From a virus (taxonomy: Duplodnaviria; Heunggongvirae; Uroviricota; Caudoviricetes): a stretch of 14,097 nt of DNA. The DNA is taken from the IMG/VR virus record IMGVR_UViG_2531839662_000021, positions 1 to 14,097 of that record; one strand, written 5' to 3'. This document shows positions 1-14,097 of the stretch, one piece after another. Below the pieces are notes generated by a model. It was given only the letters and a program-made list of their open reading frames with translations, did no database searches and was not told where the DNA came from. A program made the translations under genes and the position numbers. The number at the start of each line of letters is the position of its first letter. Position 1 is the stretch's first letter.

Positions 1-348
1 TACATCATGGCGACGGATTCGTGGGGGTACTCCCGCGACGTGCGCTGTGAAGTGCTGGCCGGAAAGGTGATCAAACGCCTGCTGTCGTCGGATGCCACCG
101 GAGGCATGGGGGCTGAACGCATGGCTGCTGATGTGCGGGCAGACAACATTTACTCCGCCAGCCTCGACGGGCTGGGTGTCACCATGTGGGCGGTGACGTG
201 GGAGCAGGAATTTCGGCTGGATGAAGAGATTGATCTCGCCGCGCTCCCGGACTTCCTGCGCCTCGGGGCAACGCTGCGTAGCGGTGAACACACTGAAATT
301 AACGACGTGATCCATGTACGGGGTGACGATGGAACAGAAACTGATTAA
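1..348 (+). CDS. 5'-truncated CDS, C-terminal part of a Mu gp37 (K)-like tail completion/terminator protein
   Basis: ORF is in frame from base 1 (no start inside the window) and stops at 346-348. Position immediately upstream of the small gp38-like ORF and the sheath gene matches Mu late-operon synteny. Function inferred from synteny only. Confidence 0.5.
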   Translation, partial: YIMATDSWGYSRDVRCEVLAGKVIKRLLSSDATGGMGAERMAADVRADNIYSASLDGLGVTMWAVTWEQEFRLDEEIDLAALPDFLRLGATLRSGEHTEINDVIHVRGDDGTETD

Positions 349-514
349 GCCAGCGCGGGAAAACGTCCGTGTCCGTAAACCGGATGGCGCGCATTTATCC
401 CCGGAAGGGGAACGTCTCGACGTCTGCGCTTACTGGCTGCGCCGTGAAGCCGAGGGAGATGTGGAAATAACCGCGCTTCCGAAAAATAGCAACAAAAACA
501 GAGGGAAAAAATAA
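329..514 (+). CDS. small conserved tail-region protein, Mu gp38-like
   Basis: 61-aa ORF (MEQKLIKPAREN...). ATG at 329 is preceded by a GGGGTGA Shine-Dalgarno-like motif; the ORF track's start at 314 has no good RBS. Its stop overlaps the sheath ATG (TAATG at 512-516). Small gene between K-like and L-like genes as in Mu. Confidence 0.5.
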   Translation: MEQKLIKPARENVRVRKPDGAHLSPEGERLDVCAYWLRREAEGDVEITALPKNSNKNRGKK

Positions 515-1990
515 TGTCGCTGGGTTCAATTCCTGATGATATCCGCGTCCCGCTTGTCTGGATCGATATCGACAATTCACAGGTGCTGGATGGTGCATCC
601 GCGCAAAGCCGAAAAATTCTGGTCATGGGCCATGCGGTATCGTCCGGCAGCGCAGACGCCCTGTCACTGACCCGCATCACCAGTGACAGCCAGGCAGACC
701 AGCTTTATGGCAAAGGGTCGATGCTGGCTGAAATGCTCAAAATGCTGCGTCGTGCCAACACGTACACGGAAACCTGGGCTATGCCGGTTGCCGCGCCTGA
801 AGGCGCTGCCGCAAAAGCCACGCTGACCGTGCTGGGTACAGCGACTGAAGCCGGAACGGTGGCACTGCTGATTAACGGTGTGTCCGTTCAGGTGAGCGTG
901 AGCGCCGGGGCTACGAAGGAAAACATTGCAAAAGCCATTGCTGATGCGGTGACGAAAAAGCCTGCCACGCAGGTGGCCGCTGCGGTGAAGGATGATGCCA
1001 CGGATACCGTGGAGCTGACCGTGAACTGGCACGGCGTCACCGGCAACGGTGCCGACGTTCGCCTGAACTACTACACCGGTGAAGCCTTCCCGGCTGGTGT
1101 GAAGGTGACCGCTACTGCGTTTACCGGCGGCACCGGGACACCGGAAATGGCGGATGCCGTTGCGGCCATCGGCCCGGAGTGGTTTACCGATATCATCGCC
1201 CCGTTCACCGACACGAAAAGCCTGAACACCCTGCGTGATGAACTGCTGAACCGCTGGGGGCCGCTCAAAATGATGGAGGCGCAGCTGTGGACGGCGTTTC
1301 GTGGCACGCACGGCGAGACAGGCACGTTTGGTGAAACCCGCAATGACTGGCTGATTAGCTGTATTGGCACCAACCTGTCACCGCACCCGGCGTGGATGTG
1401 GGCCGCGTCATACGGCGCAACGGCAGCGTATCACCTTTGCCATTGACCCGGCGCGTCCGCTTCAGACGCTGGTCCTGACCGGCATTCTGCCGCCTGCGCG
1501 TAATGTTCGCTGGGATATGCCGGAACGTAACCTGCTGCTGCATGACGGCATTGCCACACACATGGTGGACGCCGGGGATAACGTCTGCATCGAGCGTGAA
1601 ATCACCATGTACCGGGTTAATCAGTACGGTGATGCGGATGTGTCGTACCTTGATGTGCAGTCACCCGCCACGCTGGGCCGTATCCGTTACATCATCAAAA
1701 ATCGTTTCACGAACCGTTATCCGCGCCATAAGCTGGCGGACGATGACGTGCTGGACTCACTGGATGCCGGTCAGCCGGTGATGACGCCGAAGCTGTGCAC
1801 CGCAGAGCTGCTGGATATCTGCCAGACCGAACTTATTCCTGCGGGCCTTGTGGAGAACTTCAGCGATTACAAGGACACGCTTCAGGTGACACGCGACAGC
1901 AGCGATAAAAACCGTCTGAACTTTATCTGCCACCCGAATCTGGTGAACCAGCTGCGTGTGCTGGCAGGCCTGATTCAGTTCAAACTTTAA
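514..1990 (+). pseudogene. contractile tail sheath protein (Mu gpL-like), reading frame disrupted by an apparent +1 frameshift near 1420-1440
   Basis: ORF 514..1446 (310 aa, starts MSLGSIPDDIRVPLVWIDID, GAGGGA RBS upstream) continues as protein-like sequence in the next frame (ITFAIDPARPLQTLVLTG... to stop at 1988-1990). Combined span is 1477 nt, one base more than a multiple of three; an intact gene would be about 491 aa, the typical sheath size. The frame-2 ORF upstream of about 1425 is Arg-rich junk. Confidence 0.75.
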
Positions 1991-1999
1991 GGGGGCCGC

Positions 2000-2356
2000 A
2001 TGGCAAAAATTCTTGGCATGGCGACCATTCGCGTGAATGGCCGCGAAATTAAAACCGAGGGGAAATCCACGCTGAATCCGGGCGGCTTCAGTCGCACCCA
2101 GCATATGGGCGGCGGCAAGGTCTGGGGCATCTCCAGCAAGATGGCCTCGCCGTCCATCAAGGTGACCATTGCGGCGGCAGCGGATATGGACGTGATTGAA
2201 ATCAGCAGCTGGGAAGACGTCACGGTGATGTTCTACGGCGACAATGGCCTGAACTACATGATGACGGGTTCCGCCACGGATAACCCGGCGGAGCTGGACG
2301 AGGATTCCGGCACCATCAGTGCCAACTTTATCGGTGAAAAATGCGTGAAGGTGTGA
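2000..2356 (+). CDS. tail tube protein (Mu gpM-like)
   Basis: 118-aa ORF directly after the sheath gene with AAGGGGG RBS 6 nt upstream of ATG; size and position typical of myovirus tube proteins. Confidence 0.75.
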   Translation: MAKILGMATIRVNGREIKTEGKSTLNPGGFSRTQHMGGGKVWGISSKMASPSIKVTIAAAADMDVIEISSWEDVTVMFYGDNGLNYMMTGSATDNPAELDEDSGTISANFIGEKCVKV

Positions 2357-2357
2357 C

Positions 2358-2753
2358 ATGGCTGAAATGACATTTGAACTGAAACACGGGCTTCTGACCG
2401 GCAAAGGCACGGCAGATGAAACCCTGCATAAAACCGTGAAACTGCGCGAACTGACCGCCAGCGACGTGATTGATGCACAACTGGCCGCAGAACGCGTCGT
2501 CATGGGCGGGAACGGAAAGGCGGTGGCCTACTGCTCGGAAGTGCTGATGGGGCTGGAGATGATGCGCCGTCAGGTTGCGGCCATCGGCAGCATTCCCGGC
2601 CCGCTGGACATGAAACAGCTGCGAATGCTCCACCCGGCAGACCTTGAGCTTATCAGCACGAAAGCCGCTGCGCTGGATGACATGCTTGAGGAGGTGGCAA
2701 CGCGGGGGCGACCTGATGCCGCTGGCGGCGGCACTGATGAACCTGCTGGTTAA
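2358..2753 (+). CDS. tail assembly chaperone (Mu gp41-like), short in-frame product
   Basis: 131-aa ORF between tube and tape measure genes, the conserved position for tail assembly chaperones; ATG lies 1 nt after the tube stop. Confidence 0.7.
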   Translation: MAEMTFELKHGLLTGKGTADETLHKTVKLRELTASDVIDAQLAAERVVMGGNGKAVAYCSEVLMGLEMMRRQVAAIGSIPGPLDMKQLRMLHPADLELISTKAAALDDMLEEVATRGRPDAAGGGTDEPAG

Positions 2754-2853
2754 CCTGTCCCAGCGATTCAGCATTCAGTACCTGGAACAGCTGCCCCTGC
2801 GGCAGCTGTTCCGCCTGATAAAGCAACTGGAGAAACAGCATGGCAACAGGTAA
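2358..2853 (+). CDS. tail assembly chaperone frameshift fusion product (G-GT-like), putative -2/+1 shift at G-run 2704-2708
   Basis: A second frame is open from 2644 to the stop at 2854-2856 and overlaps the 3' end of the chaperone ORF; CGGGGGCGA at 2703-2711 is the candidate slip site. The extension ends 14 nt inside the tape measure gene start. Fusion would be about 165 aa. Confidence 0.45.
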
Positions 2854-4696
2854 CCGTCTCAGCACGGAAATCATGATCAACCTTGCCGGGAACCTGACCG
2901 CCAAAGCCCGGCAGTACGGCGCAAATATGTCGCAGTTCGCCCGGAACCATCAGAAGGCCATGCGCCTTGTCAAAGCCACAACGGAGGCCGCAGGACGCGG
3001 CCTTGATACGCTGGGCAACCGCTACACGGCAATGATAGCCGGGCTTGGCAGTAGCCTAACCATCAAACAGGTTGCCGATTTTGATGCGCAGATGCGCCGG
3101 ATGGGTACGGATGCCCAGTTAACCACTGAACAGGTAAAGACGCTTCACGACAAAATCAGGGATGTATCGAACCAGAAAGATATTCGTATTGATGCCTCTG
3201 CGCTTGGTCAGGGGGCCAGCGAACTTCTGGGGAAAACCGGTGATTATCAGTATGTGGTGGACAACCTCCGCAACATGGGGTTGATGATGCAGGCGTTCGG
3301 TGTTGACGGACAGGTTGCAGCCGGGCTGATGGCGCAGTTCTGGGAAAAAAACGTCCGGGGCGCTGATGCGGTCAGTAACATGATGGACAGGCTGTATTCG
3401 CAGTTCGCAGTGGGGTCTGTCAGCGTTGCCGATGTTGCCCGCGCAGCTCCGAAACTGTTTTCCATCATTCAGGATCAGGGACCGGAAGCCATTGCCCAGA
3501 TGGGGGCATTTGCTCAGGTGTTCGCCAAAAACAAAGGCAGCATTGATGAGACGGTAACCAGTATTCAGGCCATGTATGCCTCCCTGTCGGACAAAAAGAA
3601 CATCGAGTTCCTGAAAAAAAACGGCGTTGATGTTTTTGTCAAAGGCACAAAAGACATCAAAAAGCCCTATGAACTGATGATGGAAATCCTTAAACGGGCC
3701 AAATACGACCCGCTGAAACTTCAGGATGTGTTTGATCAGACCGGGATGCAGGGGATTAAGGCGCTGCTTAACCCTGAAAACCGGCAACTGATGGAACAAA
3801 TGATTTACGGCACGATTGATCTGGGTTCCACGCAAAAGGCCGCACAGACCAATGCCGAAGGCTTTAATGCTGCAATGCAATCACTGAATAACGAATGGCA
3901 ACGTTTTGCTGAAGGGCAACTGGCAAAGCCCGTTCAGGACCTGGCGGATGCGCTCAACAGCGTGGACCAGGATACCGTCCAGAACTGGTTGCAGGTGGGT
4001 AAATATATAGCGATTGCGCTGGGTGGCATTATCGCCATCAGAAAGACGTATCAGTTCGGTAAAACCATCCACGACATCATGAATCCCAAAGGGAAAGGCA
4101 AAGGGATTCCCGGTGGCATTACGGATGTTTTCGGCTCCGGTGTGATGCCGGTTTATGTGGTTAATATGGGCAGTGGCGGGATGAATGGTAATACCGGCGG
4201 TCTGCCGGATACACCGGATTCATCGCGCAATCCCCGTAACCCACGCAATCCTCGGGGTCCGGGTAACCGTGGAGGAAAGGCAGGTAAAGGCGCTGGCATC
4301 ATTACCGGTGCTCTGGAGTTTTACGATTTTCTGACCACGCAATACGCCCTGCCGGGTGAGGTTGACAGCCTTACAAAATCCGTTGCCGGTGATGCCAGCG
4401 CCAGCCCGTGGGAGCGCGAGTTCGCGCAACAGAGTCAGGACAATCAGAAAGCGCTCGAGTCCGTCTGGCGTAAGGTAACGGACTGGTTCAACTCGCTGGG
4501 TGACAAGAACATTGCCGACCCGCGACCGTGGGCAGGTATGCAACCCACACAGAATTATCCTTTCCTTCCGCAGCAATTGCAGGGGGAGATCCGTGTGGTG
4601 GTGGAAGGTGACGCCCGCGTGAAAAGCGTCAGAGTGGATCAACCCGGCGTCAGACTCAGTGCGCAGGCTGGCGTCACCAGCGTGGAGCAAGGGTAA
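2840..4696 (+). CDS. tail tape measure protein (Mu gpN-like)
   Basis: 618-aa ORF following the chaperone pair, GGAG RBS upstream; hydrophobic segment (WLQVGKYIAIALGGIIAI) and Gly-rich low-complexity C-terminal region typical of tape measure proteins. Confidence 0.8.
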   Translation: MATGNRLSTEIMINLAGNLTAKARQYGANMSQFARNHQKAMRLVKATTEAAGRGLDTLGNRYTAMIAGLGSSLTIKQVADFDAQMRRMGTDAQLTTEQVKTLHDKIRDVSNQKDIRIDASALGQGASELLGKTGDYQYVVDNLRNMGLMMQAFGVDGQVAAGLMAQFWEKNVRGADAVSNMMDRLYSQFAVGSVSVADVARAAPKLFSIIQDQGPEAIAQMGAFAQVFAKNKGSIDETVTSIQAMYASLSDKKNIEFLKKNGVDVFVKGTKDIKKPYELMMEILKRAKYDPLKLQDVFDQTGMQGIKALLNPENRQLMEQMIYGTIDLGSTQKAAQTNAEGFNAAMQSLNNEWQRFAEGQLAKPVQDLADALNSVDQDTVQNWLQVGKYIAIALGGIIAIRKTYQFGKTIHDIMNPKGKGKGIPGGITDVFGSGVMPVYVVNMGSGGMNGNTGGLPDTPDSSRNPRNPRNPRGPGNRGGKAGKGAGIITGALEFYDFLTTQYALPGEVDSLTKSVAGDASASPWEREFAQQSQDNQKALESVWRKVTDWFNSLGDKNIADPRPWAGMQPTQNYPFLPQQLQGEIRVVVEGDARVKSVRVDQPGVRLSAQAGVTSVEQG

Positions 4697-5970
4697 TGAC
4701 AACAGGCAAAGGCAAATGGGACGGACTGCGCGACGCCTCGTTTCGCGGTGTCCCCTTCTTTCTGGTGGATACGGAAGGCACCGGTGGCCGCAGGGCTATT
4801 CCCCGCGCGTATCCCCGGCGTGAAACCGCCTGGACGGATGATAACGGGGCCGTTCCCGGTCAACAGCAGATTAACGCAAAGCTGCCAGGTAAAAACTTCC
4901 AGGATGATTTAAACGCCCTTTTAGACGCGCTCAATACCCCCGGCCCCGGCGAGCTTATCCACCCGTGGTTCGGGATACAGACCGTACAGGTTGGCAAGGT
5001 CACCCATCGCCTCAGCACGGAGGAAGACGGCATTGCGTATGTCACTTTTGAAGTGTTTGAGGCAGGCGAGCGCCTGTTCCCGTCTGCGGCGGATAACACG
5101 CAGCAGGAAGTACTGACGGGTATTGATGCGGTAAAAGCGGCCATTGACGATGGCGACTGGTTCGGCGCACTCGACGGGCTGGGTGAGATGGCCGACAGCT
5201 TTCTGGCTGATATGGAAAACCTTGTGGCTAACCTGCCCACGTTACCGGCAGCACTGAATCAGTGGATGGACAGGCTGAACCATTTTAAGGAGATGGCCGG
5301 AACCATCATTGCCACACCGGGGCGTCTGGTCAGTGAGCTGTCCTCGTTCATCGACGGCGTGGTTGATCTGGTGACGGAACCACCCGAAGCACTGGCGGTT
5401 TACACGACATTACGCAACCAGTGGGCCGGAGAACGCGCCCGACAGGTTGCCACCGGCGCACTGCCGGAAGATATCACCGTGAAGCCAGGCAGCGTGGCAG
5501 ACGGCGAAATTGGCTTTGCTATCGGGCTGTCACCGGATTATCAGCCGGTATCTGTCAGTCTGCAGAAGAACATTGACGACTTCCGCCAGGTGGTTGTGCT
5601 GGAAACCCTGCTGGGACAGGCAAATGCCGTGGCCTCGATGACGTTCGATACCAGTGATGCGGCCTTATCTGCCGGTGACACGCTGGCGGCTGAACTGCAT
5701 GAGCAGGCGGTGGCAGCGGTGGAAAATAACCAGCGGGCATTGTGGCGAACGCTGCGCGATTTACGGCAGGCCGTGATTACGGATGCCCGCGAGCGTGCCG
5801 CCCGTCTGCCGGAAACCCGGCAGGTGACGCTGACCACAACCACATCTGCCGCATTGCTGGCATGGCGCGAGCATGGGGATACAAGCCGACGGGATGAAAT
5901 CGTGCAGCGTAACCGCCTGCGCCATCCGTCATTCATCCTGCCAACGCAACCAGTGGAGATTACCGACTGA
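4696..5970 (+). CDS. Mu gp43 (P)-like 'DNA circulation' baseplate/tail protein
   Basis: 424-aa ORF; N-terminus (KWDGLRDASFRGVPFFLVDTEG) resembles the DNA-circulation N-terminal family found after the tape measure gene in Mu-like phages; start overlaps the upstream stop (TAATG). Confidence 0.7.
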   Translation: MTTGKGKWDGLRDASFRGVPFFLVDTEGTGGRRAIPRAYPRRETAWTDDNGAVPGQQQINAKLPGKNFQDDLNALLDALNTPGPGELIHPWFGIQTVQVGKVTHRLSTEEDGIAYVTFEVFEAGERLFPSAADNTQQEVLTGIDAVKAAIDDGDWFGALDGLGEMADSFLADMENLVANLPTLPAALNQWMDRLNHFKEMAGTIIATPGRLVSELSSFIDGVVDLVTEPPEALAVYTTLRNQWAGERARQVATGALPEDITVKPGSVADGEIGFAIGLSPDYQPVSVSLQKNIDDFRQVVVLETLLGQANAVASMTFDTSDAALSAGDTLAAELHEQAVAAVENNQRALWRTLRDLRQAVITDARERAARLPETRQVTLTTTTSAALLAWREHGDTSRRDEIVQRNRLRHPSFILPTQPVEITD

Positions 5971-7040
5971 TGGAATCCGTGATTCTTACCGTTGACGGCA
6001 AATTGTGGGAAGGCTGGACGGAAATGTCCGTCAGCCGTTCCCTGAAGGCGATTGCCGGTGAGTTTGATCTCAGTGTGACAACCCGCTGGTCAGCGGCGGC
6101 ACCGCGCGTGATACGTGAGGGGCAACCCTGCACGGTCAGGCTGGGTGCGGATACCGTGCTGACAGGGTATATCGATGATTTTATCCCCAGCTATGACGCA
6201 GATAACGTGGAGATTCGCGTCATGGGGCGCGACAAAACCGGCGACCTGGTGGACTGCTCTGTGGTGCATTCATCCGGGAAATGGAAAGGCGTGCGGCTGG
6301 AACAGGTAGCGGCTGATGTCTGCCGCCCGTTCGGGATAGCCGTCATCACGGAAACCCCGACCGGGGAGGCGTTTGCGTCCGTTGTTCTGGAACAGGGTGA
6401 AACGGGCTTTGAACTGCTCGACCGGCTGGCAAAACAGCGCGGCGTTCTGCTGACGTCTGACGGCGCAGGTAACCTGATTATCACCCGCGCCTCTTCCGTT
6501 CGCGCGGGTGTGTCACTGGTGCTGGGGAAAAATATCCTCGCCGCCCGTGGGCGCTTCAGCTGGCGGGAGCGTAACAGCCAGTACATCATCAAGGGCACCA
6601 CCAGTGCCGGTGGCAAACTGTGGGACAGCCAGCCTGCCTCGATGGTGGGTGGTCGCCAGTACATCACCGAAGACCCGGAAATTAACCGTTACCGCCCGCG
6701 CATTCTGGTCAATGAAGACAGCCTGACCGTGGGCGGGGCCAGCATTCGCGGGGAATGGTACAAAGCCCGGATGCTGGGGGAATCCCGCACGACGGAAATC
6801 ACGGTGGCAGGCTGGCGCGAACAGGGCGACAGCGGCCCGCTGTGGCAGACCAATCGCCTTGTCGATATCGACGACAGCATTCAGAACCTGAAAACCACCT
6901 GGCTGATATCCGGGGTGACCTGGACGGATGGCGCACAGGGGCGGATGACGGTTCTGGCGCTGGTTCCGCCTGAATCACTGGATATGCCGGAAATGAAAGC
7001 GAAGACGAAGAAAACAAAGGCGGTGGCCACATGGGATTAA
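5970..7040 (+). CDS. baseplate hub protein (Mu gp44/Q-like, P2 gpD-like)
   Basis: 356-aa ORF in the conserved position; start overlaps the upstream stop (TGATG). Confidence 0.7.
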   Translation: MESVILTVDGKLWEGWTEMSVSRSLKAIAGEFDLSVTTRWSAAAPRVIREGQPCTVRLGADTVLTGYIDDFIPSYDADNVEIRVMGRDKTGDLVDCSVVHSSGKWKGVRLEQVAADVCRPFGIAVITETPTGEAFASVVLEQGETGFELLDRLAKQRGVLLTSDGAGNLIITRASSVRAGVSLVLGKNILAARGRFSWRERNSQYIIKGTTSAGGKLWDSQPASMVGGRQYITEDPEINRYRPRILVNEDSLTVGGASIRGEWYKARMLGESRTTEITVAGWREQGDSGPLWQTNRLVDIDDSIQNLKTTWLISGVTWTDGAQGRMTVLALVPPESLDMPEMKAKTKKTKAVATWD

Positions 7041-7567
7041 ACGCAATTGCCCGCCGTCTGCGGCTGCTGGTTGACCGTGCCGTTGTGCGCATGGTGTCTG
7101 ACAGTCTGGAGCGGCAGAACCTGCAAATCCAGACGCTGGCTGATGCCACCGACGACGACGTGGAACGCTTCCAGAACTACGGGTTTACTTCCGTTCCGCC
7201 GGAAGGTTCTGAAGCCATCGTGCTGGCCGTGGGCGGACGGCGTGACGGGCTGGTTGCCATCGCGGTGGAGGACAAGCGATGTCGCCCGAAAGGCCTGTCC
7301 CCCGGTGATGTCCGGCTGTATCACCAGGACGGTAAATCGCATATCACGTTAAAGAAAGGCGGAATTATTGAAATCACAGGAGAACAATTAAACGTTTCAG
7401 GGAAAACGGTAAATCTCACCGCCGACGAATTGCTGAATATTATCGGTAAACAAATGAAATTCGTCGGTCCCTGTGAATTTACTGCAGATGCCACAATCAA
7501 CGGTAAATCTTTCATCAAACACATTCATAAGGACGGCGACAATGAGAAGACATCACCGCCCATATGA
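7031..7567 (+). CDS. baseplate central spike / assembly protein V (Mu gp45-like)
   Basis: 178-aa ORF overlapping the hub gene by 10 nt; size and position match gpV-like spike proteins. Confidence 0.7.
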   Translation: MGLNAIARRLRLLVDRAVVRMVSDSLERQNLQIQTLADATDDDVERFQNYGFTSVPPEGSEAIVLAVGGRRDGLVAIAVEDKRCRPKGLSPGDVRLYHQDGKSHITLKKGGIIEITGEQLNVSGKTVNLTADELLNIIGKQMKFVGPCEFTADATINGKSFIKHIHKDGDNEKTSPPI

Positions 7568-8016
7568 CGACCGGAATCCGCTGGAATAATACTCTCTCAC
7601 GGGGTGACATCACCGTCACCCATAACGGCCTCTCACTGGATGAGGGGCTGGTCACTCAGGTTCTTATCTGCCTTTTCACTGATGCCCGTGCTGATGACGA
7701 TGATGTCATTCCAGATGGTTCCGGCGACCCGCGCGGCTGGCCGGGCGACACGTACAGCGATTTTTCGTGGGGTTCCCGCCTGTGGCTGCTTGAGCGCGAA
7801 AAACTGACGGAAGATGTCCGCCTGCGCGTGGAGGATTACGCGCGACTGTCCATGCAACCGCTGCTGCGGGCCGGTTACGCCCGTAACGCCACCGTCACGG
7901 CCAGAATCATCGTCCCTGACCGTATTGCCTTTCAGGTGGTGTTAACCCGCCCGGACAAAACCACGCTCACAATCGAAATCACCCGCCGATGGGAGGCCAC
8001 CATTAATGCCGTATGA
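7564..8016 (+). CDS. baseplate wedge protein, Mu gp46 (W)-like / T4 gp25-like
   Basis: 150-aa ORF with ATGA start/stop overlap with the upstream gene; Asp-rich motif (DARADDDDVIPDGSGDPRGW) characteristic of the GP46 family. Confidence 0.7.
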   Translation: MTTGIRWNNTLSRGDITVTHNGLSLDEGLVTQVLICLFTDARADDDDVIPDGSGDPRGWPGDTYSDFSWGSRLWLLEREKLTEDVRLRVEDYARLSMQPLLRAGYARNATVTARIIVPDRIAFQVVLTRPDKTTLTIEITRRWEATINAV

Positions 8017-9082
8017 AATCCCCTCGCTGGGCAAACTGATTGCCGACGGCGAAAAAGATATTGCGTATGAACTCGGTCTGCAAAAGCTGCCGCCTGTCAG
8101 TGTTGAGCAGGCGCTGAACGTGTCGTTCAGCAGTCAGGTCCGGGATTTATACGACCATCAGAGCTGGATTAAGGACCAGATAATCCCGTCCACCGCATCT
8201 GATGATGAAACCATTATCAAAACAGCAACGTATGAAGGGGTTATCCGCAAGCAGGCAACCTTTGCCAGCGGGCCGGTGACCTTCACCAGTCAGTCCCCCA
8301 TTCCGGCAGAAACCCGGATGCAGTCCGACACGAATCAGGTGTATCAGGTACTCACATCCGGCGAGGTACAGGACGGCGAGGTCACCGTCATCGTGCAGGC
8401 TGAAGAAGCCGGTGTGGCGGGCAATCTTGCTGCCGGTGCCGTGCTCACTCTGTTGTCCCCGCTACCCGGAACGGGCAGCACCGGCGCGGTGACTGAAAGT
8501 GGCATCACCGGTGGCGCAGACATCGAATCCATCGCAGAGCTGCTGGACCGTCTGCTGTATGTGCGCCGCAATCCCCCGGTGGGCGGTGCACTGCATGATT
8601 ACGTCATCTGGGCGCGTGAAGTGCCGGGTGTCAGCCGCGCGTGGGCATGGGATGCGTGGCACGGCCCCGGCACGGTCGGGCTGGCATGGCTTTATGATGA
8701 CCGTGAAGACATTATCCCCACACGGGACGACCTGAAGACAATGGAGCAGTATCTGTTCTGCCACAAACACCCTGCCACCGGCGTGATGGTGGGCAAACCG
8801 GGCGGCATCGAGGTCTGGCCGGTGCAGGTCAGGCTGAAGAAGCTCGACCTGTCCATCCGTCTGACACCGGACAGCCAGGCGAACAGGAACGCCGTCCGGG
8901 CAAACCTGACCGCATTGCAGAAAACGCTGGCCCCCGGTCAGATGCTGCCGGTGTCCTCGCTGCGCACGGCCATCGGTATGACGTCCGGTATCACGGATTA
9001 CTTCCTCAACATCGGGGAGGACACCACCAGTGATGTGGATGAGCTTATCACCATCGGGGAGGTGACATGGCTCACAGCGTGA
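8006..9082 (+). CDS. baseplate J-like protein (Mu gp47-like)
   Basis: 358-aa ORF overlapping the upstream gene by 11 nt; size and synteny match baseplate J family proteins. Confidence 0.7.
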   Translation: MPYEIPSLGKLIADGEKDIAYELGLQKLPPVSVEQALNVSFSSQVRDLYDHQSWIKDQIIPSTASDDETIIKTATYEGVIRKQATFASGPVTFTSQSPIPAETRMQSDTNQVYQVLTSGEVQDGEVTVIVQAEEAGVAGNLAAGAVLTLLSPLPGTGSTGAVTESGITGGADIESIAELLDRLLYVRRNPPVGGALHDYVIWAREVPGVSRAWAWDAWHGPGTVGLAWLYDDREDIIPTRDDLKTMEQYLFCHKHPATGVMVGKPGGIEVWPVQVRLKKLDLSIRLTPDSQANRNAVRANLTALQKTLAPGQMLPVSSLRTAIGMTSGITDYFLNIGEDTTSDVDELITIGEVTWLTA

Positions 9083-9651
9083 CGGAATGGCTGACCGCAC
9101 TGCAACAGGTCATGCCACGGGGTAAGGCATGGCCGCGTGATAACGACGCGGATTTAAACCGTTTTTTAAGGGCGCTTGCAGAGCGTTTAACCCGCGTTGA
9201 ATACGACGCCTCGCGTCTGCATGTGGAGATGCGACCGGAAACCACGCTCCAGTTGCTGCCGGAGTGGGAGCAATATCTGGCGCTGCCGGAATGCGGAATT
9301 GCCGCCACCACAACGGAAGCCCGCCGCCGGGCCGTGGTGGAGAAATACCGCCGCAAAGGCGGGCTGGCCACCTGGCAGATTGAAGCCGCTGCGGCGGCGC
9401 TGGGATTCACTATTAAGGTGACGGCCGTTCTGCCGCACCACTGCCTGCGTGACTGCATGTACCCGCTACATCCGGCGCGGTATCGCTGGCTGCTGAAAGT
9501 GGAAGTCCCGGACAAAGATGCCGGGCGGTTTACCTGTATTGATGACGTCATGACGCCATTAATCAGCGAACGGACCCGCGAGCTGGAATGCCTGCTGAAG
9601 CATTACCGGCTGGCGGGCACGGAATATGAATATTATTACACCGGAGAATAA
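9067..9651 (+). CDS. tail/baseplate protein Mu gp48-like (P2 gpI-like)
   Basis: 194-aa ORF overlapping the upstream gene by 16 nt, immediately preceding the tail fibre gene as in Mu. Confidence 0.65.
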   Translation: MAHSVTEWLTALQQVMPRGKAWPRDNDADLNRFLRALAERLTRVEYDASRLHVEMRPETTLQLLPEWEQYLALPECGIAATTTEARRRAVVEKYRRKGGLATWQIEAAAAALGFTIKVTAVLPHHCLRDCMYPLHPARYRWLLKVEVPDKDAGRFTCIDDVMTPLISERTRELECLLKHYRLAGTEYEYYYTGE

Positions 9652-9654
9652 TTT

Positions 9655-10542
9655 ATGTTTCATGTGGATAATCCGACGGGTGTGCCAGTGATGCCACCTG
9701 TCGCGGCTGAATTAAGCAAAACAACGCTTTATTTCACCGAAGGCGGGAACGGTATTCCGCCCACTTATCCGGGGCCGGACTGGTTTAATATTATTCAGTC
9801 TGAATTACTGAAAATTCTCGAAGAAGCCGGAATAACACCGGATAAAGCAGATACCGGTCAGATAATGGCAGCGCTGAAAAAACTGTTTATTACGAACAGT
9901 GGTTCAGCTGGTGCCATTGCCGGATTAACCGGTCAGAATAATACGTTCCCGTACTTTACGGGCGAAGACACAATGGCATTAACGCCGCTCAGTGCTTTTG
10001 TGCGCGGTATTCTCGGGAAAAACACAGCCGGTGAAATTATCGACGCGCTTTTATTACGTGACACGGTAAATAAAGCTAATAGTGCTGTACCGAATACCCG
10101 CAGGGTCAACGGCATGGCTCTGTCTTCGGATATCACCATCAGCAACATCAGCGGCAACGCCGGAACGGCAACCCGACTTCAGACGGCCCGCAGGATTAAC
10201 AATGTGCTGTTTGATGGCAGCCGCGATATCACGATTTCTGCGGGAATGTCACAAACTGAAGGTGACAACCGTTACCAGCAAAAAAACACGGCGTCAAAAG
10301 CCGGTAATGGCTGGTTTAAGGACACGTCCACCGGGGTGATTATTCAGTGGGGGTATCTCGGCAATGCCAGTGCCGGGCTGACGTTTCCGATATCATTTCC
10401 GTCAGCATGTACCAGCATCACTATTACCAACGCATACACCCGTGCTGATTACTCTATTTCCCTGAAATCGTTATCAGCAGCAGGTGCGACATTCAACAGC
10501 GAGAATAACGGCGTTATGTACTGGACAGCGATAGGGTATTAA
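9655..10542 (+). CDS. tail fibre protein (Mu S-like), module 1
   Basis: 295-aa ORF with GGAGAA RBS; directly follows the baseplate genes and is followed by an overlapping tail fibre assembly gene; more AT-rich than the upstream structural genes. Confidence 0.75.
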   Translation: MFHVDNPTGVPVMPPVAAELSKTTLYFTEGGNGIPPTYPGPDWFNIIQSELLKILEEAGITPDKADTGQIMAALKKLFITNSGSAGAIAGLTGQNNTFPYFTGEDTMALTPLSAFVRGILGKNTAGEIIDALLLRDTVNKANSAVPNTRRVNGMALSSDITISNISGNAGTATRLQTARRINNVLFDGSRDITISAGMSQTEGDNRYQQKNTASKAGNGWFKDTSTGVIIQWGYLGNASAGLTFPISFPSACTSITITNAYTRADYSISLKSLSAAGATFNSENNGVMYWTAIGY

Positions 10543-10982
10543 TGATGACTATTTATTTCAGCCCATCAACAAACGGTTTTTATCATTCTGGCCTTCAGGG
10601 TGATTATGAAAATGCGGGAACGTGGCCGAATGATTTACAGGAAATCACGGATGAAGAATATCAGAGACTGTTACAGGGCCAGACTGACGGTTTTATTATT
10701 GTATCTGGCGAAAACGGATATCCGGTATTAAAAGAACCCGTAATTAACTGGCAGCAGAAAGCGGAAACGCAACGCCAGCACCTGCTGGCTGAAGCAAGGG
10801 AAATCACCTCCGACTGGAAAACCGAGCTGGAGCTGGGCACCATCAGCGACGATGATAAAGCCCGTCTTACGCAGTGGATGGCATATATCAAAGCGGTAAA
10901 GGCACTGGATTTAAGCACCGTTACTGACGAAGACTCCTTTTATTCCATCAACTGGCCGGAGCGTCCCGATGCCGCAGCTTAA
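10542..10982 (+). CDS. tail fibre assembly chaperone (Mu U-like / Tfa), module 1
   Basis: 146-aa ORF with TAATG overlap to the fibre gene; size and position typical of Tfa/U chaperones. Confidence 0.7.
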   Translation: MMTIYFSPSTNGFYHSGLQGDYENAGTWPNDLQEITDEEYQRLLQGQTDGFIIVSGENGYPVLKEPVINWQQKAETQRQHLLAEAREITSDWKTELELGTISDDDKARLTQWMAYIKAVKALDLSTVTDEDSFYSINWPERPDAAA

Positions 10983-12576
10983 AGGTGTGATTAAAACGCC
11001 CACGGGAGAACCGCTGGGCGGCGCAACCATTACATTGACCTCCCTGCACAACCGCGCAGGGATTCTGAAAAGTGTTTTCAGCCATGTCACCACACAGAAC
11101 GGGGAATATGACTTCCCCGTTCTGCCGGGTGTGTACAGCGTTCGCCTGACACAAAGCACACAGCGCCTTTCAGAAATCGGTGTCATCCGCGTTTATGAAG
11201 ATTCAGCGGACGGTTCGTTGAATGATTTTCTGGGTGCAACCGATATTGACCTGCGCCCGGAAGCCCTGAAGAAATTCGAAGAGCTGGCGCAACAGGCGCA
11301 GCAAAGCGCAGAAGCCGCAGCGGAAAGCGAGCGACAGGCCGGGCAACATGTCGCTGATGCGCAGAAGATAAAGAAAGACTGTCAGACGCTGGCGGATAAC
11401 GTACAGCAGAACGCAGAAGCCGTAGCGGCCAGCAAACAGCACGTTGAACAGCTGGCCTCAGAAGTTGAGCTGAACGCCGGGCAGGTGCAGCAGGGCGTGC
11501 AGAATGTTACTGATGCGGTAAAAAAGGCGCAGCAGGCAGCAAAGGATTCTGCTGACAGTGCCACAGATTCGAAAAACAGTGCTGACAATGCGGCACTGAG
11601 CGAACAGAACGCACAAAAACACGCGCAGAAAGCTGAACAACACGAGCAGCAGACTAAACAATATGCGCAGGATGCAGCGACCGCCGCAGAATCAGCAGAG
11701 AACGCCAAAGGCGAAATTGACGAAATTCTGGAAGGTGGCTATCTCAAGATAAAAAACAACTTTCAGGAAATTGTTGATGCTGGCCCGTCAGCACTGGCTC
11801 AGGCCCAATGGAATTTACAGATTTCCGGGGTGAAAAATAAACAGGTAATTGCCACCCCTTATACATGGCCATCCAGAACTGAGTATGAACAAAGGGTGCA
11901 TCTGCCACTCGCCGGGGCTTACGGATTTGGCTACACATTTGAAGACCAAAGCCAGGGGCGAATAAATTTTAATGAGGGCTATACGGCGTCGTGGTGGTCA
12001 CAGTGGGCGAAACCTGGTCGTTATTACGTCAGCGCCAGTGATAAAGAATACCTCGCACCTGAAGGAGAAAGGTGGGGGATTGTTGATTTGCTGTGGCTTA
12101 ATGGCAGCGGATATAACGATGCTTCGAAGGTTCTGAAGATACTGGCTTTTTACGACTCAGACGGGCACTTACACATAGGCAAGCGCGTTGGTCAGAGCGA
12201 CTGGTCAATAAGCTGGCGCAAGCTGGCATCGCTCTCTGATGTCAGGGCCATGCTGTATTCATATATTTATAATAATTACAACAGAGAATGGCGAGACCCG
12301 GAACTGGGAGGTTTAATTCTGGCGTCATACCAGGGAACCGCAGACGGCGACACAAATATAAAAGTATCCCGTGGTCAGACTTATCCCGGCTCGCGACTCG
12401 CTCCTGTGGCGATAGAATGCCAGTTCACCCCATCCGGCACGTATGCTGCAACACCGCGATTCTACATTACCGGCTGCAAGAGCAAATCACTCCCCGGAAC
12501 TTATATTTCATTGTCTGGCGCGCCAACAACATACAGCGACCAGGCATTTGTTGCGCTATTCATGAGGATTGTATGA
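10969..12576 (+). CDS. second tail fibre protein with distinct N-terminal domain, long Ala/Gln-rich coiled-coil stalk and C-terminal receptor-binding region
   Basis: 535-aa ORF; N-terminus (MPQLKGVIKTPTGEPLGGATITLTS...) resembles prophage tail-fibre N-terminal domains; residues about 100-250 are strongly Ala/Gln/Glu/Lys-rich; followed by its own Tfa gene. Confidence 0.75.
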   Translation: MPQLKGVIKTPTGEPLGGATITLTSLHNRAGILKSVFSHVTTQNGEYDFPVLPGVYSVRLTQSTQRLSEIGVIRVYEDSADGSLNDFLGATDIDLRPEALKKFEELAQQAQQSAEAAAESERQAGQHVADAQKIKKDCQTLADNVQQNAEAVAASKQHVEQLASEVELNAGQVQQGVQNVTDAVKKAQQAAKDSADSATDSKNSADNAALSEQNAQKHAQKAEQHEQQTKQYAQDAATAAESAENAKGEIDEILEGGYLKIKNNFQEIVDAGPSALAQAQWNLQISGVKNKQVIATPYTWPSRTEYEQRVHLPLAGAYGFGYTFEDQSQGRINFNEGYTASWWSQWAKPGRYYVSASDKEYLAPEGERWGIVDLLWLNGSGYNDASKVLKILAFYDSDGHLHIGKRVGQSDWSISWRKLASLSDVRAMLYSYIYNNYNREWRDPELGGLILASYQGTADGDTNIKVSRGQTYPGSRLAPVAIECQFTPSGTYAATPRFYITGCKSKSLPGTYISLSGAPTTYSDQAFVALFMRIV

Positions 12577-13142
12577 TGCAGATTAAAGAAATCACCAGCC
12601 CCCGTTATACCGAATCCGGTGCGATTGACTGCGACGTTCTGTTTGAGGAAATGGAAGCCCCTGTTCCCTACACTGCCACGCCGGACGATACAGCGAAAAC
12701 CGGTCAGCAAATCTGGCAGGAACTGCAAAGCGGAAAATGGGGTGAAATAACCCCGTTTGCCGTCACGCCGGAACTTATCGCAGCGGCGAAGGATGCCAAA
12801 AAACGGGAGATTGAGGCATGGCGCACAGAACAGGAGGCGCAGCCATTCACGTTCGAATGGAACGGTCGTACCTGGAATGCTGGTCCCGATTCGATGGCTC
12901 GCATTGCGCCCGTGGCAATGGCCGCAAAAGTGGCAGGTGCACGGGCAACGCTGGGGTGGGGGGATGCAGCAAACAGCCTTGTCACCATGACAATGGCGCA
13001 GCTTCAGGAGCTGGCAGCAACAATGGCGCAGGCGCAAACCGAGCGCAATACTGTGATTTATCGTCGTCAGCGTGAGATGAAAGAGCAGCTTTCCCTGTTG
13101 ACCACACTGAACGAAATAAGAGCATTCACACCCGGCGATTAA
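12573..13142 (+). CDS. tail fibre assembly chaperone (Tfa), module 2
   Basis: 189-aa ORF starting at ATGATG with GAGG RBS and ATGA overlap with the fibre stop. The longer ORF from 12288 in the track is a junk-like upstream extension. Confidence 0.7.
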   Translation: MMQIKEITSPRYTESGAIDCDVLFEEMEAPVPYTATPDDTAKTGQQIWQELQSGKWGEITPFAVTPELIAAAKDAKKREIEAWRTEQEAQPFTFEWNGRTWNAGPDSMARIAPVAMAAKVAGARATLGWGDAANSLVTMTMAQLQELAATMAQAQTERNTVIYRRQREMKEQLSLLTTLNEIRAFTPGD

Positions 13143-13265
13143 ATAATCATTTTGTATAGTTTATGACGATCGATAACATCATATCGATCGTCGGTTTGCA
13201 TCATATGTGATTAAATACCCCCAGCCCTCCGGGCGGTCATGTCTGGTTATTACACAGGGGGAATC
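13143..13265 (+). promoter_or_regulatory. mom-operon control region (Pmom-like): perfect 11-bp inverted repeat carrying two GATC Dam sites, G+C-rich element, com RBS
   Basis: GACGATCGATA (13165-13175) and TATCGATCGTC (13182-13192) are exact reverse complements separated by 6 bp; GATC at 13168-13171 and 13186-13189. Downstream ATACCCCCAGCCCTCCGGGCGG and AGGGGG RBS precede the com ATG. In Mu, Pmom is controlled by Dam methylation of upstream GATC sites and by the C activator. Confidence 0.55.
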
Positions 13266-13451
13266 ATGGACTCTGTTCGCTGTAAAAACTGCAATAAATT
13301 ACTGTTTAAAGGAGGTTTTAAGCATATAGAAATTAAATGCCCTCGCTGTAAACGTTACATTGTCATATCGAATGCCAAAGAGCATCCCACGGAGCTGTAT
13401 TGTGGGAAAAGAGAAGAAATCACGCATTCTGACAAAACCCTGCGTTATTGA
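13266..13451 (+). CDS. com: Com, zinc-finger translational activator of mom
   Basis: 61-aa product [33 protein letters not shown]...HSDKTLRY with CxxC...CxxC zinc-finger spacing, closely resembling Mu Com as I remember it; AGGGGG RBS 6 nt upstream of ATG; 3' end overlaps mom. Confidence 0.85.
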
Positions 13452-14097
13452 GTATGAAGGTCGTATTGTCGGCTATGGTTCAAAGGAGCTACGTGTTGAA
13501 ACCATATCCTGCTGGCTGGCCCGCACAATCATTCAGACAAAACACTATTCCCGCCGTTTTGTGAATAACTCCTACCTGCATCTTGGCGTATTCAGCGGAC
13601 GTGATCTGGTTGGCGTTCTTCAGTGGGGATATGCCCTTAACCCCAACTCAGGGCGTCGGGTCGTGCTTGAAACGGATAACCGGGGCTATATGGAACTGAA
13701 CCGCATGTGGCTACACGACGACATGCCCCGCAACTCTGAATCACGGGCTATCAGCTACGCGCTGAAAGTTATCAGGTTACTGTATCCGTCAGTTGAGTGG
13801 GTTCAGTCTTTTGCAGACGAACGCTGCGGACGTGCTGGCGTGGTATATCAGGCGTCGAATTTTGATTTTATTGGTAGCCATGAAAGCACGTTCTACGAGC
13901 TGGACGGCGAGTGGTATCACGAGATAGCGATGAACGCGATTAAGCGCGGAGGGCAACGAGGCGAGTATTTGCGGGCTAATAAGGAGCGGGCCGTGGTACA
14001 CAAATTTAATCAGTATCGCTACATCAGGTTCCTGAACAAGCGCGCAAAAAAGCGCCTAAACACCAAGCTATTCAGGATTCAGCCATACCCGAAGTGA
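13402..14097 (+). CDS. mom: Mom DNA modification protein (adenine modification, anti-restriction)
   Basis: ORF in a different frame overlapping the com 3' end and running to the window end (stop 14095-14097). GTG at 13402 is preceded by GGAG (13391-13394) and gives 231 aa, the length I recall for Mu Mom. An in-frame ATG at 13372 (241 aa) is an alternative start. Confidence 0.8.

Follow-up and report, generated by a model that had tools for sequence, protein, structure and literature searches.

A GC step before the tail-fibre genes of a Mu-like Escherichia coli prophage and the probable modular make-up of its right arm

The stretch of DNA analysed here, positions 1 to 14,097 of the IMG/VR record IMGVR_UViG_2531839662_000021 and hereafter referred to as the window (14,097 nucleotides, nt), represents the right third of a transposable, Mu-like prophage of Escherichia coli, in which tail genes rich in guanine and cytosine (GC) are followed by GC-poorer genes for tail fibres and DNA modification. 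Open reading frame (ORF) listing and Pfam scans revealed a Mu-type contractile-tail module on the plus strand, in the order DUF2635 protein (gp38-like), sheath, tube, chaperone, tape measure and homologues of gp43 to gp48, then fibre 1, a Caudo_TAP chaperone, fibre 2, a DUF4376 protein, com and mom. The GC-rich tail core occupies 329-9651 (GC 0.578; GC at third codon positions, GC3, 0.66) and runs from the gp38-like gene through a frameshifted sheath gene to the gp48 homologue. Downstream of it lie fibre 1 (9655-10542, Gp53-like_C in Pfam), chaperone 1 (10542-10982, Caudo_TAP), fibre 2 (10969-12576, phage_tail_N at 1.8e-27), chaperone 2 (12576-13142, DUF4376), the mom promoter region (13143-13265, aligned with Mu and three relatives), com (13266-13451), coding for the zinc-ribbon translational activator of mom (Zn_ribbon_Com at 3e-07, and RefSeq annotation in relatives), and mom (13372-14097), which overlaps com and codes for a DNA adenine modification enzyme (Mom at 1.1e-75).

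The assignment to a transposable E. coli prophage was drawn from several kinds of comparison. Of 5426 complete E. coli genomes searched by megablast, 200 matched the window and 37 of these held at least 80% of it, and positions 968-14097 recurred at 99.7% identity in four independent assemblies. The annotated relatives occupied varying chromosomal sites, where different host genes were interrupted (potE, a yph-adjacent gene, gspE and others). The full prophage of strain STEC383 carries, outside the window, Mu-type ends, transposase A and B, gam and mor; in relatives sharing the window at 95-99.7%, A and B were 92% and 77% identical to Mu in amino acids (aa), and the left and right ends 80% and 88% identical in nt. 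The varied insertion sites, together with the transposase genes and the Mu-like ends, therefore identify the element as a transposable Mu-like prophage. Its tail is of Mu type, since the gp38 to gp48 homologues were collinear with those of Mu at 27-50% aa identity, and the Gp41_Mu, Phage_Mu_Gp45, GP46 and DNA_circ_N domains were found by Pfam on the 99.7% identical copies. The genome-wide nt similarity to Mu that marks the genus Muvirus (D108, SfMu) was absent, as alignment at 86-92% was restricted to the early arm and the com-mom-attR segment, and the late block gave only five short matches at 64-72% and was otherwise unalignable. No description of this particular prophage lineage was found in full-text literature searches.

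The tail core, in which Baseplate_J and Phage_Mu_Gp48 were also detected by Pfam, was 94-100% identical in nt to its E. coli relatives. Among phage records, megablast found nothing for it and a word-11 search was needed, by which Klebsiella phage Kp4866-3 was recovered as the closest match at about 70% nt, and Mu was not recovered in these nucleotide searches. The core proteins were mostly 55-83% identical in aa to those of Kp4866-3 and of a prophage of Raoultella sp. BIGb0138, with the tape measure at 36-39%. Relative to Mu they preserved 27-50% aa identity, and synonymous divergence (dS) ranged from 1.2 to infinity, mostly above 1.5 and hence saturated. A scan of genome contigs with gp47 returned only two distant loci (Raoultella and Trabulsiella), both cut at or before gp48 and unusable for the fibre region.

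The initial annotation had claimed, by eye, a compositional shift at the first fibre gene, and this was confirmed by sliding-window GC, a change-point scan and GC3. Bulk GC fell from 0.579 in 1-9654 to 0.503 in 9655-14097; sliding values ranged from 0.51 to 0.63 across 1-9500, except for 0.49 at 3501-4000 (a second low of 0.51 lay at 7251-7750), and from 0.44 to 0.57 from 9501 onward. The single best break of a maximum-likelihood change-point scan was at 9623, 32 nt before the fibre 1 start codon, with a log-likelihood ratio (LLR) of 38.4, which was reached by none of 200 shuffles (the highest values were 10.9 for blocks of 30 nt and 30.8 for blocks of 300 nt), and recursive segmentation found no further breaks at an LLR of at least 12. 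The compositional change point, a feature without strand, was thus placed at 9623-9655, around the gp48 stop at 9651 and the fibre 1 start at 9655. GC3 was 0.661 in 13 core ORF segments (3204 codons, the sheath counted as two segments) versus 0.527 in six downstream genes (1472 codons), a significant difference both by Fisher test (p = 3e-18) and, at gene level, by Mann-Whitney test (p = 0.0014).

The downstream block was itself uneven, with GC of 0.41 at 10542-10760, 0.54 at 10761-11313, 0.51 in the rest of fibre 2, 0.55 in chaperone 2 and 0.42 in the mom promoter region. The two A+T-rich runs that had been quoted from this block are present exactly, at 10553-10576 and 12263-12282. The description of com and mom as A+T-rich holds for com (GC 0.39, and 0.34 in its 5′ part) but not for mom, whose GC of 0.50 and GC3 of 0.57 are not A+T-rich for E. 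coli; likewise, the C-terminal half of fibre 2 is A+T-richer in direction, but lies only about 3 points below the N-terminal part.

Within fibre 1, the first segment (9655-10235, about 193 aa, GC 0.49) is an N-terminal anchor resembling the constant part (Sc) of Mu S. Its residues 1-166 were 34% identical to Mu S by tblastn, and a local alignment gave 43% over 162 aa; the match spanned the constant part up to the boundary of the G segment and some 30 residues beyond. In the relatives the anchor was kept at 86-96% nt up to 10235, and the bin at 9601 of a 300-nt identity map, where fibre 1 starts, at 78-93%. The anchor belongs to the lineage-conserved block and has diverged from Mu alongside the core. 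The tip of fibre 1 and the N-terminal half of chaperone 1 (10236-10760, GC 0.41-0.49, Gp53-like_C and Caudo_TAP) form a rare exchanged allele, which was unaligned in five of the six close relatives and present in one of the 5426 complete E. coli genomes, versus at least 37 genomes holding at least 80% of the window; the tip had no match in a phage tblastn search. The C-terminal half of chaperone 1 and the N-terminal domain of fibre 2 constitute a conserved linker (10761-11313, GC 0.54) that was 87-100% identical in nt in all six relatives.

Adjoining two of the exchange breakpoints of this region, a 22-nt inverted repeat was observed at 10200-10221 and 11425-11446, with 19 of 22 positions complementary; such a pair occurred in only 2 of 100 codon shuffles. 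A cryptic invertible segment was considered and rejected, because the Din-type crossover core AAACC-NN-GGTTT is absent, there is no invertase gene and the two arms co-occur only in this allele combination. The repeat is probably due to chance.

The second exchange unit comprises the coiled-coil shaft and tip of fibre 2 (to 12576) and chaperone 2, at 11293-13084, with GC of 0.51-0.55. E. coli JNEC-KY178 carries a Rac-SA53-type prophage to which this whole segment aligned over 1793 nt at 87.5% identity, and the baseplate J protein of that prophage is unrelated to the gp47 of the window (35% over 94 aa, score 38). The best matches of fibre 2 and chaperone 2 were phiP27, Rac-SA53 and a Rac-type E. 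coli prophage, at 80-88% nt. Chaperone 2 was 78% identical in aa to the proteins of phiP27 and Rac-SA53, whereas the phiP27 core reached only 27-34%, and the N-terminal domain of fibre 2 was 53-54% identical to the same two. In the comparison of modules with Mu, no similarity was found for the fibre 2 N-terminal domain, chaperone 2 or the fibre 1 tip. The chaperone-2 segment recurred at about 85% identity in a third tail type, in STEC316. Among the close relatives, 11314-12575 was unaligned in five of six and identical in UMNF18, and chaperone 2 was 73-85% identical in four, identical in UMNF18 and absent from NCCP13717. Moreover, a hinge at 11314-11460 was found at 83-95% in about 100 E. coli genomes and 12563-13084 at 80-86% in many prophages, and since single genomes carry up to eight or nine homologous places, recombination partners are available. 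It is very probable that this cassette circulates among unrelated E. coli prophages of the phiP27, Rac-SA53 and P2-like types.

Immediately downstream of the gp48 homologue, the tail ends of the phiP27/Rac-SA53 type show the same four-gene order (fibre, Caudo_TAP chaperone, phage_tail_N fibre, DUF4376 protein); as this order is found in phiP27, which has a Mu-type contractile tail, an origin of fibre 2 as a lambdoid graft was ruled out. These prophages differ from the one described here in that their records hold attR/attB-type integration features and not transposition functions, in the lack of a matching fibre 1, in the unrelated baseplate of the Rac type and in the distance of the phiP27 core; com and mom were not detected in the parts of these records that were examined.

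Some further features of the fibre 2 region deserve mention. The shaft (residues of about 100-260, rich in Ala, Gln, Glu and Lys and coiled-coil-like) corresponds to a very high adenine-thymine skew of 0.48 at 11251-11750, and carries a 46-nt direct repeat spaced 105 nt as well as a 21-nt tandem repeat. Other types of cassette occur at this site in relatives: in STEC719 an SGNH/GDSL hydrolase gene comes after a short phage_tail_N protein and takes the position of the fibre 2 tip, and in NCCP13717 gp48 is extended to 975 nt and an extra gene of 1059 nt precedes fibre 1 (loci L006 13986-16712 and L008 12069-14125).

At the right end, a Mom-family enzyme is preceded by the overlapping com zinc-ribbon gene, as in the Com-Mom modules known from Mu. 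In these families, Com activates the translation of mom, and Mom modifies the adenine of phage DNA, which protects it from restriction. The best matches of com-mom were Mu, SfMu and D108 at 89% nt, and the identity map gave 90-97% in the close relatives. Mom was 96% identical in aa and 91% in nt to its Mu counterpart (dS 0.39-0.40, nonsynonymous divergence 0.02), and Com was 74% identical in aa, with a com dS of 1.03. In the promoter, two of the three GATC sites of Mu are kept with an identical spacing of 22 nt, the third is lost, and the segment up to com is diverged and carries an 11-nt deletion. This diverged segment is presumably the one bound by the C activator in Mu, and its divergence would fit an adaptation to the phage's own, non-Mu late activator. 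The left edge of the com-mom cassette lies at about 13150-13155, just past the chaperone 2 stop codon (13140-13142), and in the relatives Mu homology runs from com through the Mu-type right end at 88% nt.

Mapping against the six close relatives and the module-specific matches placed breakpoints at about 10235, 10761, 11293-11313, 12563-12617, 13084 and 13150, that is, within the fibre genes, and resolved them to about 20-100 nt. The relatives keep the core but replace the fibre tips, which indicates that the cassettes are exchanged horizontally around a conserved core. Both fibres present the organization expected of such cassettes, with a conserved N-terminal attachment part, a variable C-terminal part and a chaperone immediately downstream: in fibre 1 the anchor is kept and the tip and Caudo_TAP chaperone vary, and in fibre 2 the phage_tail_N part is kept and the shaft, tip and DUF4376 chaperone are exchanged. 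When the modules were searched separately, as the initial annotation had proposed, the best hits came from different phages: Kp4866-3 for the core, phiP27 and Rac-SA53 for fibre 2 and chaperone 2, and Mu, SfMu and D108 for com-mom. Furthermore, dS relative to Mu was 1.2 to infinity in tail and head genes, and only 0.39-0.40 in mom, 0.19 in A and 0.48 in gam; such differences in synonymous divergence are too large to be due to selection on proteins, and the best hits of the modules come from different phage families.

Taken together, the GC step most likely marks the meeting of a morphogenesis block of 58% GC with a right arm of about 50% GC composed of separately inherited modules. The first would be fibre 1, in which a rare receptor-binding tip, with the first half of its chaperone, follows the lineage-conserved anchor; the second, the fibre 2 shaft and tip with the DUF4376 chaperone, as a cassette shared by unrelated E. 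coli prophages; and the third, the mom promoter, com and mom and on into the right end, Mu-type DNA of presumably the same age as the Mu-type early transposition arm. Fibres and their chaperones set the host range of phages. The exchange could proceed by homologous recombination between co-resident prophages at conserved segments flanking the variable parts, for which the anchor up to 10235, the linker at 10761-11313, the hinge at 11293-11460 and the chaperone 2 start at 12563-13084 are candidates. The receptor-binding tip would then move with its chaperone and the baseplate-docking end would stay matched to the core, so that host range might be retargeted, while com-mom would shield the phage DNA from restriction. 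Recombination of temperate phages with resident prophages is documented by De Paepe et al. (2014, PMC3945230).

The polarity of the step was assessed against the host. Twenty E. coli genes flanking related prophages had a GC of 0.521 and a GC3 of 0.550, from which the downstream block (0.503 and 0.527) does not deviate; it is the core, with its GC3 of 0.661, that is the compositional outlier, and the cassettes are host-like. The GC of the core resembles that of its closest relatives, the Raoultella prophage and Kp4866-3, whose late region has 0.57-0.60. The step therefore looks sharp because the core GC is unusually high for an E. coli phage, as in the Klebsiella and Raoultella relatives, and the cassettes are like the E. 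coli phage gene pool. The alternative fibre blocks of the relatives all had GC of 0.485-0.518, next to cores of 0.573-0.581. The fibre 2/chaperone 2 cassette, at 0.51-0.53, lies beside tail genes of about 0.58 here, about 0.53 in phiP27 and 0.43-0.52 in the Rac type, and in the latter it is GC-richer (0.52-0.53) than the adjacent baseplate and first-fibre genes (0.43-0.50), which reverses the sign of the step. As the GC of the cassette is constant across tail contexts, the size and sign of the step depend on the recipient core. The change point was located 28 nt before the gp48 stop in STEC383, VL40 and STEC719, 120 nt before the corresponding position in NCCP13717, where gp48 is extended, and 1.8 kb further downstream in Kp4866-3.

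Several points weigh against reading the step as the product of module acquisition. Mu shows the same step, and a larger one, with a change point at 31298, 160 nt before the start of S, and a fall from 0.557 to 0.456 (LLR 72); low GC in the fibre region is therefore ancient, shared by the whole family and no sign of recent acquisition, and some process beyond single acquisition events must contribute, be it amino-acid composition, expression level or repeated conversion from the fibre pool. The GC boundary coincides with no breakpoint among the relatives, and 9623-9655 accordingly is not an exchange junction, the breakpoints lying inside the fibre genes. The fibre 1 anchor has a low GC although it is as far from Mu (34-43% aa) as the core is, and its composition is therefore not attributable to a recent graft. 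We infer the recombination mechanism from the breakpoint pattern. Consequently, of the initial proposal that host-range and modification cassettes had been grafted onto a conserved tail core, horizontal exchange around such a core stands, but the boundary, age and polarity have to be revised, since the GC step is no junction, is old and has the core as its outlier.

The question of which part is the incomer was extended to the full prophage. Relative to Mu, its early arm was 86-92% identical in nt, with a dS of 0.19 for A, 0.48 for gam, 0.58 for a gp11-like gene, 0.74 for B and 0.91 for gemA, and from the large terminase through gp47 every gene compared had a dS of 1.4-1.9. By these comparisons the genome is a chimera with Mu-type arms around a non-Mu late block, and both a com-mom module grafted onto the tail core and a late block swapped into a Mu chassis fit the data. 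Somewhat short of an even chance, but to be taken seriously, is the explanation that a Mu-type genome (ends, A, B, gam and its neighbours, and mom promoter-com-mom) received, in one event, the GC-rich late genes (lysis to gp48) of a Mu-like phage of Klebsiella/Raoultella type in place of its own central block of about 22 kb, so that com-mom would never have been grafted and the fibre cassettes would have been exchanged separately afterwards. This would account for the contrast between the two arms, which are both 86-92% identical to Mu with low dS in A, gam, the gp11-like gene and mom, and the late genes, which are all saturated, as well as for the continuous Mu homology from com through the right end. 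Moreover, where alignable, the genome is uniformly about 65-79% identical to Kp4866-3 (mostly 68-71%), and its core has a GC of 0.58, like Kp4866-3 and unlike E. coli. However, the arms are not uniformly young, with B, gemA and com at intermediate dS, the repressor/ner region is unrelated to that of Mu, and a Kp-type phage that acquired Mu-type arms on two separate occasions would show the same pattern.

A comparison with the right end of Mu (gp48 - S - U - G segment - gin - com - mom - attR) is also pertinent to the meaning of the step. The gene order from gp38 to gp48 is the same, the constant part of S has its homologue in the fibre 1 anchor, and the com-mom overlap (about 89% nt) and two promoter GATC sites are preserved; by contrast, the tail proteins are only 27-50% identical with saturated dS, and the presumed activator-binding part of the promoter has diverged. 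The G segment, gix and gin of Mu are replaced here by two co-oriented fibre and chaperone pairs (9655-13142). No gin invertase is annotated in the full prophage (L011 2948-37364), all fibre genes being on the plus strand, and the gix sequence of Mu is absent from the 21 other loci compared, the window having a different sequence at the homologous position. The co-orientation of the two pairs suggests that both fibres would be made at once. It was considered that the step may be more than a relic of past events and be upheld in Mu-type tails by a continuing process, and that two constitutive co-oriented fibre cassettes replaced the Gin inversion switch in this lineage. In spite of the synonymous saturation that separates Mu from this lineage, the fibre region of each lies 8-10 GC points below its adjoining baseplate genes, even in the anchor, which is as far from Mu as the core. 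Repeated gene conversion from a shared, AT-richer enterobacterial fibre pool, reaching the anchor, or selection (silencing in the lysogen, or a lower translation rate) might sustain such a difference; we nevertheless regard this reading as a whole as unlikely.

Even more doubtful is an origin of the step without horizontal transfer, by which the amino-acid composition of the fibres and their low copy number would leave them with a weaker codon bias than the abundant sheath, tube and baseplate proteins. The step recurs in Mu and, regardless of the cassette carried, in every relative, and the anchor, which diverged along with the core, is also of low GC. Likewise, GC at first codon positions falls from 0.62 to 0.55 (0.47 in fibre 1), which points to an amino-acid effect, and a host-referenced codon index is highest in sheath and tube (0.77-0.80). 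However, the low-copy genes of the core (gp46, gp48 and the tape measure) still have a GC3 of 0.62-0.67, the step is weak in phiP27 (LLR 4.5), the cassette is GC-richer than its neighbours in Rac-type prophages, and the discordant similarities and dS values reveal exchange directly, independently of composition, which refutes functional constraint as the sole explanation. An assembly artefact joining two unrelated sequences can practically be discarded, as complete genomes and independent assemblies, 94-99.7% identical to the window, show an identical gene order with the same junctions and nothing in its support was found, the one oddity being an extra T that frameshifts the sheath gene.

The modular reading preferred here places the prophage within a well-known pattern. 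The exchange of tail-fibre genes among unrelated phages, as in H/G of P2, S/U of Mu and P1, and stf/tfa of lambda, has reportedly been described by Haggard-Ljungquist et al. (1992) and Sandmeier (1994), and follows the same design of a conserved N-terminal attachment part and a variable tip travelling with its chaperone, without difference in principle. The window is a further instance, in a Mu-like prophage lineage; fibre exchange among unrelated phages and compositional mosaicism are already textbook matters and no new biological principle is involved. Its analysis separates the core from the exchangeable host-range and anti-restriction modules in a common E. coli prophage, which may aid annotation, host-range prediction and fibre-swap engineering. 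It also calls for caution, because the GC step, taken alone, misplaces the boundary and may invert the polarity, the host-like segment being mobile and the atypical one the conserved core.

Kp4866-3 and the Raoultella sp. BIGb0138 prophage are the closest relatives of the tail core, with a likewise GC-rich late region of about 0.57-0.60. In Kp4866-3, unlike here, the fibre similarity stops after about 75 aa, and com and mom were not detected in that phage; the Raoultella locus ends within gp48. Two N-terminal anchors of the fibre 1 type were observed in Kp4866-3, at 29405-29629 and 31045-31275 (49% and 42% aa), so that this phage seems to have a tandem of fibres sharing one kind of anchor, which would be a third way of carrying alternative fibres.

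Within the core, the sheath gene (514-1990) is broken by a single additional T at about 1436-1438 (CACCTTTG, against CACCTTG in three relatives), which leaves ORFs at 514-1446 and 1364-1990. An intact sheath of 491 aa is encoded by copies with 99.7% identity elsewhere, and the present copy is either a defective prophage or affected by a sequencing error at this gene. The tape-measure gene, whose length varies from 1794 to 1857 nt in the relatives, holds variable patches at about 3043-3794 and 4260-4482 that are unaligned or only 66-88% identical there; they flank and partly overlap a GC low of 0.49-0.52 at 3501-4250, the sole one in the core besides 7251-7750. The latter (GC 0.508) covers the 3′ end of gp45 and the 5′ end of gp46, and the 7201-7500 bin, only 91-96% identical in five of the six relatives, is among the lower core bins; a small patch of recombination may lie here among the baseplate genes.

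Finally, E. coli UMNF18 harbours two prophage copies, 99.8% identical, at chromosomal sites of 3.10 Mb and 1.46 Mb. Although identical to the window in the fibre 2 region, UMNF18 was ruled out as its source, as both copies lack window positions 1-1328 and their core differs by about 2%. A deletion shared by the two, reaching from the major head gene into that of the sheath, takes the place of this part, and the baseplate genes are frameshifted in both; it thus seems that a tail-defective copy was duplicated, through transposition or in the assembly.

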